From NCBI GenBank assembly GCA_030606485.1, contig JAUWGH010000008.1, forward strand, positions 184,259 through 216,258: a stretch of DNA of 32,000 nucleotides. Direction: 5' to 3'. Every line of letters starts with the position of its first letter. The first letter of the stretch is position 1. This document shows positions 5,349 through 8,528 of this stretch, piece after piece. Source of the DNA: Promethearchaeota archaeon. Its GTDB lineage: Archaea > Asgardarchaeota > Lokiarchaeia > Sigyniarchaeales > SOKP01. Under the pieces are notes generated by a model. That model saw only the letters and a program-made list of their open reading frames with translations, was not told where the DNA came from and did no database searches. The translations under genes and the position numbers were made by a program.

Positions 5349-5445
5349 CTCTTGAAAATAAGGTAATTAATTCAGAATTTATTAAGTGATTTTGAGAAGA
5401 TTACAATCGAAAATATTTTAAAATGGAAGTTAAAAATACTTGAAA

Positions 5446-5613
5446 TTACTCCTTATTTTGAATTTCTCGATATTCCTTAGTTATCAAAAATCTAATAATT
5501 TCAGTGTTATTTTTTATTCCATGATACACTTTAATGTCTTCTAACTTATGAAATATTTCCGTTTCGATTGGAACATGCAATTCTTTATTTTTCTCAGGCA
5601 CAATTAGGTACAT
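5446..5613 (-). CDS. Small (55 aa) ribbon-helix-helix/CopG-like DNA-binding protein, copy 1 (not in ORF track)
   Basis: Hand translation: MYLIVPEKNKELHVPIETEIFHKLEDIKVYHGIKNNTEIIRFLITKEYREIQNKE*. Beta-strand then helix-turn-helix pattern typical of RHH. The frame is preserved in the second copy. Confidence 0.75.
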   Translation of the reverse strand: MYLIVPEKNKELHVPIETEIFHKLEDIKVYHGIKNNTEIIRFLITKEYREIQNKE

Positions 5614-5717
5614 TTTACTAATATTATTTAATAATTTTTTTGATTATCCATATAAAATCCACAAATAGGAAACCAAATTAATAACCTTATATATAAAAAT
5701 TATTGATCATCCACTTA

Positions 5718-5736
5718 TTATCCAAAAATTGGATTA
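5718..5736. promoter_or_regulatory. Palindromic operator candidate TTATCCAA-N3-TTGGAT(T)A, copy 1
   Basis: Inverted repeat in the divergent promoter region, conserved in copy 2 although flanking DNA has diverged. Confidence 0.6.
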
Positions 5737-5821
5737 AAATTGGATATCTTTATAAATTAATTTCTGGTTTATTAAAATATAATCCTAAAAATCAAAAAAA
5801 ATTCATAGTTTCCGTTGAAAA

Positions 5822-6778
5822 ATGTATGAAATCATATTTGCTATTATAATTCTTATTGTAGGAATGTTTCTTATATTCTTTTCCAGTAATATAGCTGTCA
5901 AGCATTCTGCCATACTCGCATCCGCTCTAGGTATATCTCCCTTAATAATCGGTATTTCATTGGTGTCAATAGGCACTGATCTTCCTGAAATATTTAATTC
6001 AATTATTTCTAGTTCTTTAGGACATGCAGATATTAATGTAGGTGATTCTGTAGGTTCAATTTTAACTCAGATCACTTTGGTTTTTGGGCTTCTACCTATA
6101 ATTTGCGGTTCATTTAAGATTGATAGAAAGGAAATTATTATCTTGGGTGCTTGCCAAATTTTAGCGCTTATAGTGATTTATGCTATTCTTGAAAAAGGAT
6201 ATTTCACTTACCTTAATGCTATTATTTTGGTTGGAAGTTTGGTGATTTATTTAATAATAATAAGTAGTGTTACTAAGGAAAGCATTTTGGAGCGGGTAGA
6301 TTTGATAGAAAAAACAAGCACTCCTAAGAGTAAACCATTTCATATTTTAATAGCCTTTTTAGGTTTTATAGGAGTAGCTATTGGTGCATATTGCATTGTT
6401 CAATCAATAATAACACTCTCAAGTTTATTTCATGTTCATGAATATATCATCAGTTTTTTTATAGCTAGCATAGGAACTTCTCTCCCAGAATTAGCGGTCG
6501 ATGTAAATGCTATTCGTCAGAAACATTATAAAATCGCAATTGGAGATATAGTTGGTAGTTGTATAGTTGATGCAACACTCTCCATAGGCATAGGACAAGT
6601 ATTTTTTCCACAAGCAATTTCCGCCGAACTCGCAGTTCCGACAGTTCTATATACTATTTTTGCATCTTTTATAGTTTTTATTATTGTTGCAGTTAAAAAA
6701 AAAATGGATAAAAAAGCTGGAATTGCTTTCATCATACTCTATTTAGTTTCATATTTATTATTATTCATTTTAATCTAA
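5822..6778 (+). CDS. Ca2+/cation antiporter (CaCA, Na+/Ca2+ exchanger-like), copy 1
   Basis: Two alpha repeats (GTDLPE...GDSVGS and GTSLPE...GDIVGS) and about 10 hydrophobic segments. Confidence 0.92.
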   Translation: MYEIIFAIIILIVGMFLIFFSSNIAVKHSAILASALGISPLIIGISLVSIGTDLPEIFNSIISSSLGHADINVGDSVGSILTQITLVFGLLPIICGSFKIDRKEIIILGACQILALIVIYAILEKGYFTYLNAIILVGSLVIYLIIISSVTKESILERVDLIEKTSTPKSKPFHILIAFLGFIGVAIGAYCIVQSIITLSSLFHVHEYIISFFIASIGTSLPELAVDVNAIRQKHYKIAIGDIVGSCIVDATLSIGIGQVFFPQAISAELAVPTVLYTIFASFIVFIIVAVKKKMDKKAGIAFIILYLVSYLLLFILI

Positions 6779-6780
6779 AT

Positions 6781-6906
6781 TTAACCTTCGTACGTTTTCA
6801 AACCAGGTATTTCCTCTCTTTCCACTCTCTTCATGCTAATAGCATCATTTGGGCAAGTGACAGCACATAACCAATATCCTATACATTTTTTTGGATTAAT
6901 ATCAAA
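6781..6906 (-). pseudogene. C-terminal remnant of a 4Fe-4S ferredoxin-domain protein
   Basis: Hand translation FDINPKKCIGYWLCAVTCPNDAISMKRVEREEIPGLKTYEG*: a CxxCxxCxxxCP motif with the second Cys changed to Tyr. No start codon upstream in frame. Confidence 0.7.
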
Positions 6907-7103
6907 ATTTAAAGACTTGGGCTTAGATAAATTATAGTTAATAAAAATAATCTTTTTATCTCTAAAAACAGATTAATTCCTAAATTTTATCTATTAAAAT
7001 ATTTTTCATTAAAATTTGCAAGCAATATAAAAGTAATCGTTATTAGATTAAAAATTTGAAAAATAAGAAAAACCACCAAAAAAGAAATTGAAAATACCTG
7101 AAA

Positions 7104-7271
7104 TCACTCGGATGTTTTAATTTCTCGATATTCCTTAGTTATCAAAAATCTAATAATTTCAGTATTATTTTTTATTCCATGATACTGTTTAATGTCTTCT
7201 AACTTATGAAATATTTCCTTTTCGATTGGAACATGCAATTCTTTATTTTTCTCAGGCACCATTAGGTACAT
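7104..7271 (-). CDS. Small (55 aa) RHH/CopG-like protein, copy 2 (not in ORF track)
   Basis: MYLMVPEKNKELHVPIEKEIFHKLEDIKQYHGIKNNTEIIRFLITKEYREIKTSE*. Same length as copy 1 but with a different stop codon (TGA vs TAA). Confidence 0.75.
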   Translation of the reverse strand: MYLMVPEKNKELHVPIEKEIFHKLEDIKQYHGIKNNTEIIRFLITKEYREIKTSE

Positions 7272-7375
7272 TTTACTAATATTATTTAATAATTTTTTTG
7301 ATTATCCAAATAAAATCCACAAATTAGACATTAAATTGATAACTTTAAATAAAAAAGTTTTTGAATACTCATTTT

Positions 7376-7394
7376 TTATCCAATAATTGGATAA
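7376..7394. promoter_or_regulatory. Palindromic operator candidate TTATCCAA-TAA-TTGGATAA, copy 2
   Basis: Perfect 8-bp inverted repeat at the same position relative to the antiporter start as in copy 1. Confidence 0.6.
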
Positions 7395-7479
7395 GAATAA
7401 GATAACTTTATAAATTGACTTAAAGTTTATTTATATATAATCCACAAATTGAAAAAAAATTCAAACCTTCTGCTGAAAA

Positions 7480-8442
7480 ATGTATGAAATCATATTTGCG
7501 ATTATAATTCTTATTATAGGAATATTTCTTATAGCATTTTCCAGTAAAATCGCTGTAAAACATTCAGCAATCCTCGCAACAGCTCTTGGTGTATCACCTT
7601 TAATAATCGGGCTCTCATTGGTATCAATAGGAACTGATCTTCCAGAAATTTTTAACTCAATTATCTCATGTTCTTTAGGGCACGGAGATATTGATGTGGG
7701 GGATTCTGTAGGTTCAGATTTAACTCAATTAACTTTAGTTTTTGGACTTCTGCCCATAATTTGCGGCTCATTTAAGATTGATAGAAGGGAAATCATTGTA
7801 TTAGGTGGATGTGAGATTTTATCGCTTATAGTAATTTATGCCATTGTTGAAAAAGGATATTTTACTCGACTTAATGCACTCATTATGGTTGGGAGTTTGG
7901 TGATATATTTAATAATAATAAGTAGAGTTACTAAGGAAAGTATTTTAGAGCGGGTAGATTTGATGGAAGAAATTGAAACTACTAAAAGCAAACCATTTCA
8001 TATTATGATTGCCTCTTTAGGTTTCATAGGCGTAGCTATTGGCGCATATGCAATCGTTCAATCAATAATAACACTCTCAAGTGTACTTGATGTTCATGAA
8101 TATATCATCAGTTTCTTTATAGCTAGCCTCGGTACTTCTCTCCCAGAATTAGTAGTCGATATAAATGCTATTCGTAATAAACATTATAAGATCGCAATCG
8201 GAGATGTTGTTGGTAGTTGCATAGTTGATTCAACACTCTCCATAGGAATAGGACAAGTACTTTTTCCACAAGCAGTTTCTGCCGAAATCGCAATTCCTAC
8301 AATTCTTTATACTCTTTTAATATCTTTAATTGTTTTTGTCATGGTTGCAGTAAGAAAAAAAATGGATAAAAAAGCTGGTATTATCTTCATTTCCCTATAT
8401 TTAGCTTCATACATATTTCTCTTTTTTATGATTTGGGTTTGA
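7480..8442 (+). CDS. Ca2+/cation antiporter (CaCA), copy 2
   Basis: Collinear paralog of 5822..6778 with the same alpha-repeat motifs. Confidence 0.92.
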   Translation: MYEIIFAIIILIIGIFLIAFSSKIAVKHSAILATALGVSPLIIGLSLVSIGTDLPEIFNSIISCSLGHGDIDVGDSVGSDLTQLTLVFGLLPIICGSFKIDRREIIVLGGCEILSLIVIYAIVEKGYFTRLNALIMVGSLVIYLIIISRVTKESILERVDLMEEIETTKSKPFHIMIASLGFIGVAIGAYAIVQSIITLSSVLDVHEYIISFFIASLGTSLPELVVDINAIRNKHYKIAIGDVVGSCIVDSTLSIGIGQVLFPQAVSAEIAIPTILYTLLISLIVFVMVAVRKKMDKKAGIIFISLYLASYIFLFFMIWV

Positions 8443-8528
8443 GGTTTCAGAATTTTATTCGTATTTTTACATCTCTAAATCAGGTATATCATAAGTTTAA
8501 TTAATCATTAATAAATATAAAGTTTTAA

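Follow-up and report, generated by a model that had tools for sequence, protein, structure and literature searches.

A predicted ribbon-helix-helix protein and a helically phased site array beside a cation antiporter gene in Asgard archaea

Two adjacent copies of a two-gene unit are present within a 32,000-nucleotide stretch of genomic DNA (hereafter 'the window') from a Promethearchaeota archaeon of the Asgard lineage (contig JAUWGH010000008.1, positions 184,259 to 216,258). In both units, a small open reading frame (ORF) on the minus strand is arranged divergently from a plus-strand gene for a Ca2+/cation antiporter (CaCA). This layout had been proposed in a first-pass annotation prepared from the DNA sequence, wherein each ORF was described as a hidden 55-codon gene of the ribbon-helix-helix (RHH) class, separated from the antiporter gene by a palindromic operator. 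The gene coordinates agree with that description, and both antiporter proteins carry two PF01699 (Na_Ca_ex) domains. Alignment of the window copies reveals that the whole unit is duplicated in tandem in the window's genus, with one copy located at approximately 5430-6810 and the other at approximately 7090-8480.

The small ORF is a genuine gene, conserved and under strong purifying selection. Public data contain 68 homologues of the protein, each of about 51 amino acids, and the frame is open and its length constant in all loci. Codons 11 through 50, when compared across genera, have a median synonymous divergence (pS) of 0.56 versus a median nonsynonymous divergence (pN) of 0.12, with synonymous sites near saturation. 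A total of 16 residues are invariant in the family, and these are concentrated in the block YHGIKNxTEIIRFLITKEYRE. In three relatives from the window's genus, the listed ORF opens with ATA in place of ATG, and a TTTAATAA box, the predicted TATA box of the gene, is centred ~26 nucleotides from the ATG codon of Met4. Therefore, we prefer Met4 as the start, and the predicted product is probably a protein of 52 amino acids made from a leaderless mRNA, a step that assumes the typical spacing of TATA box and transcription start site in archaea. No Pfam or NCBIfam model covers it. The gene is not hidden in a strict sense, as relatives have already been called as hypothetical proteins in NCBI records of metagenome-assembled genomes (MAGs). 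Some relatives bear the JGI label 'predicted CopG family antitoxin', which already hints at the fold.

A survey in which one genome per species was scanned yielded 48 loci that carry the small gene, and a divergent CaCA gene is located upstream of it in 46 of these. The CaCA protein is at least 59% identical to that of the window in 44 of the 46 linked loci. The two unlinked loci comprise L069, an orphan second copy, and L025, which comes from a genome within the window's own genus. General synteny was considered as the source of this linkage and rejected, because the flanking genes vary between genera: the outer flanks are AOR and LarA in the window, and Sir2, nitronate monooxygenase (NMO), MCP, TPR or HhH proteins elsewhere. 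Given that the outer neighbours change from genus to genus, the RHH and CaCA genes appear to form a conserved unit. The link between the small gene and CaCA is borne out by the locus counts, but in a phylum-wide sample of 400 genomes the strict protein family (E <=1e-16) was seen in a single GTDB family only, rather than across Asgard archaea. The NCBI record titles for some loci name other Asgard phyla. More distant relatives of the small protein, which mostly carry Arg at position 13, are not accompanied by a CaCA gene in any of 14 loci examined, and Pfam RHH models match none of 10 distant representatives. The genome that includes the window carries a third CaCA gene on another contig (C2), and this gene has neither a small ORF beside it nor an upstream array of the kind described below.

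The intergenic regions between the divergent genes exhibit a common architecture. Four direct GGAT-type sites, TGGAT(A), are present in 38 of the 48 intergenic regions and in none of the shuffled sequences, and the spacing between successive sites is 11, 10 and 11 base pairs in 37 of those 38 regions. The array begins 32 to 37 nucleotides from the RHH start and is located between two divergent predicted TATA boxes, and the protein and its array are kept together at a fixed spacing across at least 10 genera. Its consensus is TTGGAT-N5-ATGGAT-N4-TTGGATAAAAAATGGATAAtTTTATATA, wherein the fourth site abuts TTTATATA and occupies the position of the transcription factor B recognition element (BRE) of the CaCA promoter. 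The first site lies a few bases past a purine-rich BRE of the RHH promoter, and the TTTAATAA block noted above is found at the same position in most related loci. Overall, the array looks like a pair of 21-base-pair units, each containing two sites, and it extends over three helical turns.

In the window's genus, the first two sites of the array are inverted, such that the order becomes ATCC, ATCC, GGAT, GGAT, with all sites 11 base pairs apart. The palindrome in the window, TTATCCAA-N3-TTGGATAA, results from this flip of the first two sites. It is perfect in copy 2 only; copy 1 reads TTGGATTA, with one mismatch. The extra ATCC and GGAT half-sites noted nearby are real and are spaced by exactly 11 base pairs. 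However, the proposal that the palindrome is conserved above its flanks is not clearly supported by the comparison between copies, wherein 17 of 19 palindrome bases are identical versus approximately 76-80% of bases in the flanks. Because copy-to-copy conservation is not clearly above that of the flanks, the significance of the palindrome derives from conservation across genomes. The idea of an operator is likewise retained in part: conserved, repeated sites are indeed present at the promoters, but the functional unit is likely to be the set of four helically phased TGGAT(A) sites, with the palindrome arising where two of these are flipped in the window's genus.

The operator and promoter sequences of this genus have undergone a further change. 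Alignment of modules indicates that a 63-base-pair operator-promoter module is doubled in tandem within each intergenic region, and that the third and fourth sites have decayed in the module copy beside the RHH gene (module A) (Table 1). Across the 3.75-Mb genome, the sequence TATCCA-N5-TGGATA occurs in 2 places versus 0 in shuffled sequences, and the sole phased cluster of four sites is the one at this locus, in module B of copy 1. Genome scans for phased clusters, for the palindrome and for a site combined with a TATA box gave no convincing further targets. We also observed that a further TATA-like run is present past the module B TATA box of each copy (7426-7451 and 5774-5790), followed by ATCCACAAATT, which repeats the 12-nucleotide AATCCACAAATT found at the RHH-proximal site (7314-7325). 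The ATCCACAAATT stretch may constitute a fifth site near the CaCA start.

Table 1. Positions of genes, predicted TATA boxes and operator modules in the window
Feature	Position	Strand	Details
RHH gene, copy 1	5446..5604	-	52 aa from Met4; listed ORF 5446-5613, 55 aa; ORF list
RHH gene, copy 2	7104..7262	-	52 aa from Met4; listed ORF 7104-7271, 55 aa; ORF list
CaCA antiporter gene, copy 1	5822..6778	+	318 aa; PF01699 x2, E 3.7e-37
CaCA antiporter gene, copy 2	7480..8442	+	320 aa; PF01699 x2 (E ~3e-37); full-length NCX_Mj match
Predicted TATA box, RHH promoter, copy 1	5627..5634	-	TTTAATAA on + strand; read from sequence
Predicted TATA box, RHH promoter, copy 2	7285..7292	-	Stretch identical to copy 1
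Module A, copy 1	5640..5702		ATCC 5646, 5657; degenerate GGAA 5668, TAAT 5679; TATA-like 5685-5698
Module B, copy 1	5703..5765		ATCC 5709, 5720; GGAT 5731, 5742; palindrome 5718-5736
Predicted TATA box in module B, copy 1	5749-5756		TTTATAAA
Module A, copy 2	7298..7360		ATCC 7304, 7315; degenerate AGAC 7326, TGAT 7337; TATA-like 7343-7354
Module B, copy 2	7361..7423		Degenerate ACTC 7367; ATCC 7378; GGAT 7389; degenerate AGAT 7400; perfect palindrome 7376-7394
Predicted TATA box in module B, copy 2	7407-7414		

Structure prediction indicates that the small protein forms an RHH homodimer of the MetJ/Arc superfamily. The ESMFold2 homodimer attains an ipSAE of 0.66, and the best of three controls scores 0.00. 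Contacts are shared between the three runs to at least 94%, and the partner pLDDT is no lower than 77. The mark used to call a dimer was reached in calibration by 20 of 30 proteins whose solved structure is a pair of identical chains and by 1 of 23 solved as single chains, counts that are only approximate here since a custom alignment served as input. Residue 13 of one chain contacts residue 13 of the other, as expected for an antiparallel ribbon, and the helices are intertwined through contacts of helix 2 with helix 2′ and of helix 1 with helix 2′. An AF2 model of the monomer (pLDDT 73) exhibits an extended N-terminus followed by helices at residues 18-31 and 36-54. RHH domains make up nearly all of its structural neighbours. 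These are matched over residues ~8-55 and include MatP (Z 6.0), NikR (5.8), ParD2 (5.4), CopG (5.1), PutA (5.0) and Arc (4.8). These predictions agree with the RHH-like identity that had been proposed from the sequence.

Several features of the amino acid sequence are consistent with this fold. The strand E11-L12-H13-V14-P15-I16 alternates, such that L12, V14 and I16 point to the core and E11, H13 and residue 15 point outward. His13 is invariant in the strict family, and broader relatives carry Arg at this position. The turn ahead of helix 2 includes the invariant G32, which is followed by an N35/T37 helix cap. The chain stops only 4 to 5 residues past helix 2, and it carries no C-terminal metal-binding (ACT-like) or sensor domain. 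Curated sequence models provide weaker hints: RHH_1, RHH_3 or VAPB_antitox is matched by one to three of 26 family members at E values of 0.014-0.031, which is below cut-off, and the best such hint is NikR, a sub-threshold match (E 0.095) that pairs residues 13-52 with NikR positions 5-44. Because the curated RHH sequence models are not matched, the assignment to the RHH class is made on the predicted fold.

The likely target of this putative regulator is an NCX_Mj-like Ca2+/cation antiporter of the CaCA superfamily (NCX/YRBG type), with the transported ion suggested by homology. The closest solved relative of the window protein is NCX_Mj (MJ0091), which aligns over its full length (E 2e-22). 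TIGR00367, the calcium/sodium antiporter model, matches CaCA copy 1 at an E value of 5e-43, which is under the model cut-off, and the NCBIfam equivalog cut-offs are missed by the window CaCA proteins. Both alpha-repeat motifs, GT(D/S)LPE (present as GTDLPE/GTSLPE) and GxxxGS, are retained. In the ion-site region, S51 of NCX_Mj is replaced by D, N81 by Q, and two GN pairs by GD, using position names that we take to be those of the NCX_Mj structure. Since these Ser and Asn positions are changed, the ion selectivity of the window proteins may differ from that of NCX_Mj. Acidic residues are present in both CaCA copies at NCX_Mj Ser or Asn positions, and the paralogues differ from each other beside the ion-site motif, where copy 1 carries GSILTQ and copy 2 carries GSDLTQ.

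Proteins of comparable size and predicted structure are known from plasmids, phages and viruses. CopG of plasmid pMV158 and Arc of phage P22 are, as predicted for the small protein, minimal RHH proteins of 45 to 53 amino acids that lack any extra domain and are obligate dimers, and both are among its structural matches (Z 5.1 and 4.8, respectively). Several dimers of CopG or Arc line up along a single DNA face, in consecutive major grooves about 11 base pairs from centre to centre, and the proteins are autoregulatory. In contrast to these examples, the small protein has no detectable sequence relationship to either, its host is an archaeon such that the target would be a TBP/TFB promoter, and the presumed target is a chromosomal transporter gene rather than a plasmid or phage function. 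The archaeal viral proteins F55 (SSV1), SvtR (SIRV1) and AvtR (AFV6) are RHH dimers of ~55 amino acids that bind tandem or inverted repeats inside or beside the BRE, TATA box or transcription start site, oligomerize along the DNA and control their own promoters (PMC5569661). These differ from the small protein in being viral rather than cellular, in recognizing other repeats (ATAGATAG for F55), and in that none is tied to an ion transporter. NikR also has an RHH DNA-binding domain, which controls metal-ion transport genes, and is similar to the small protein by both structure (Z 5.8) and the sub-threshold sequence match (E 0.095). However, NikR carries a C-terminal nickel-sensing domain, whereas the small protein ends after helix 2. 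A stand-alone cellular RHH gene regulator that is neither viral nor plasmid-borne has an archaeal precedent in CdrS of haloarchaea, although CdrS regulates the cell-division gene ftsZ2 (PMC7439475).

Taken together, we consider it probable (roughly 0.68) that the small protein is a local RHH repressor of the neighbouring cation exporter and an autoregulator, acting in the manner of CopG, Arc or F55, and that the two genes make up a self-contained module. The DNA binding and repression in this proposal are deduced from the gene and site arrangement. The ~52-amino-acid protein would consist of an RHH homodimer and nothing more. Several dimers would sit next to one another along a single DNA face, each on one of the TGGAT(A) sites located 10 to 11 base pairs apart between the divergent promoters. 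A dimer on the CaCA-proximal site, which lies against the TATA box in the BRE position, would keep TFB and TBP off the promoter and thereby repress the exporter gene, and the RHH-proximal site, located a few bases past the BRE of the RHH gene, could provide weaker self-control. The regulator might operate as a ligand-free autoregulator or, more speculatively, might contact a cation through the His/acidic face of its ribbon. Local action is proposed because a search of the genome found no second such array. Repression is favoured because the fourth site falls on the BRE position and because there are precedents among small archaeal RHH repressors: SvtR, AvtR and F55 act cooperatively on repeated sites and occlude the BRE and TATA box or the start site (PMC5569661).

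A number of points weigh against this proposal. The case is built from sequence and predicted structure. Neither Pfam nor NCBIfam models give an above-threshold match to the window small proteins, and a search with the family profile against the sequences of solved structures found no RHH protein. The structural Z scores are middling (at most 6), though this is expected for a chain of ~50 residues, and the dimer score may reflect likeness to, or memory of, RHH dimers; because many of these have already been solved, the passing score is possibly a measure of likeness rather than independent proof. The TATA boxes are predicted from sequence, and chance TATA boxes are common at 29% G+C. Every site is located upstream of the two TATA boxes, a position that archaeal activators use as well, and therefore site position is compatible with either direction of control. 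Moreover, many of the 48 loci are from close kin, with one genus supplying most of them, and so the locus counts overstate the independent support.

A final point of this kind is the unlinked locus in the window's own genus, which keeps the RHH gene and operator but lacks a CaCA gene of this type. In this genome (G001), an intact RHH gene and both 63-base-pair modules (L025:1916-4168) face an operon of nuoA/nuoH/nuoJ-like genes. A CaCA gene of the window type was not found in the G001 genome, whose completeness is estimated from markers at 100%. This arrangement reflects either capture of the promoter following a deletion or a misjoined contig.

The most serious competing explanation retains the same RHH protein and the same sites, but has the protein activate the CaCA promoter, or regulate it in both directions depending on dose, aiding the loading of TFB and TBP where the TGGATAA site fills the BRE position. 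This is consistent with the location of the whole array upstream of both TATA boxes, and with the behaviour of AvtR, which both represses and activates and spreads over ~100 nucleotides between two promoters (PMC5569661). However, the fourth site overlaps the BRE position rather than being upstream of it, and the characterized small RHH proteins are nearly all repressors (PMC5569661), such that we regard activation or dual control as unlikely. More doubtful is the possibility that the 52-amino-acid protein is itself the ion sensor, with the invariant His13 and acidic residue 11, which from each chain come together on the DNA-facing ribbon, binding the transported divalent cation. The bound metal would then compete with DNA and turn the exporter on. 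If true, this would constitute a one-domain, metal-responsive RHH switch for cation efflux in close archaeal relatives of eukaryotes.

Two other explanations separate the protein from the sites or dispense with the protein entirely. The TGGAT array could be a promoter part or the binding site of another factor, and the small protein could be unrelated to it, for example as an orphan CopG-type antitoxin. The JGI name carried by some relatives is in line with this idea, as are structural matches that include the RHH antitoxins ParD2, MazE and VapB-like proteins. An antitoxin would be expected to have a partner, but no co-directional gene follows the RHH gene: the downstream neighbours in the window are convergent (AOR, or the end of the first CaCA gene), no cognate toxin gene is present in an operon within the window, and the downstream genes of 45 related loci in other genera are mutually unrelated and mostly convergent. 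The antitoxin explanation fails on this lack of a partner gene, and an array serving another factor is difficult to reconcile with a protein and array held at a fixed distance in at least 10 genera. Overall, this alternative appears very improbable. Hardly credible is the notion that the small ORF is unexpressed and that the conserved stretch is a non-coding element, given a pN far under pS across genera, a frame that is open and constant in length in all loci, and a fold and dimer that are predicted confidently.

The type of system proposed here is well known, and the regulator family, the operator and the target are new. A literature search for RHH proteins linked with CaCA genes found no paper connecting the two, in agreement with the first-pass annotation, which knew of no description of such control. 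To our knowledge, the ways in which Asgard archaea control the transcription of individual genes have hardly been described. The locus offers a compact, strongly conserved and readily testable case that consists of a 52-amino-acid protein, a 32-base-pair four-site array and two TATA boxes. Control of cation efflux in these organisms is of some interest because actin regulation in Asgard archaea is argued, in published work, to respond to calcium (PMC9433394; PMC7444086). A curated model for the regulator family, of which none now exists, would also improve the annotation of many MAGs.

The duplicated units have not diverged uniformly. The RHH genes and their promoters (5446-5660 versus 7104-7318) are ~97% identical, and the two RHH proteins share 89% identity. 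Synonymous divergence between copies is far lower for the RHH genes (pS 0.037) than for the adjacent CaCA genes (pS 0.341). Furthermore, RHH copy 1 resembles RHH copy 2 more closely than it does the positional orthologues at two related loci (L023 and L024), and the CaCA genes exhibit the opposite pattern. Because the RHH copies are so much closer to each other by both measures, the data suggest gene conversion over ~200 base pairs at the RHH genes, as judged from few data (one to two synonymous differences). The possibility that the tandem unit reaches into the 3′ end of the AOR gene was considered and dropped, as it has no support from the alignment.

In other genera, a leader of ~170 nucleotides separates the CaCA TATA box from the start codon (L031, L032, L035-L038, L041, L045, L046, L048, L050, L054, L061 and L062), and its conserved blocks include ACTTTACCATTATAGAATnTGGAAGGTTA and CACTGAGGGCTTCAAT. 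A riboswitch or other structured CaCA leader was dropped as a candidate, since there was no Rfam match in the window and six loci and no RNAalifold consensus structure in 14 aligned leaders. Between the two units of the window, the minus strand carries an open frame that lacks any of the usual start codons (6781-6942), ending in CIGYWLCAVTCPNDAISMKRVEREE... This end resembles a 4Fe-4S ferredoxin-type motif in its C-terminal part, one Cys short, and the frame is probably a gene remnant.

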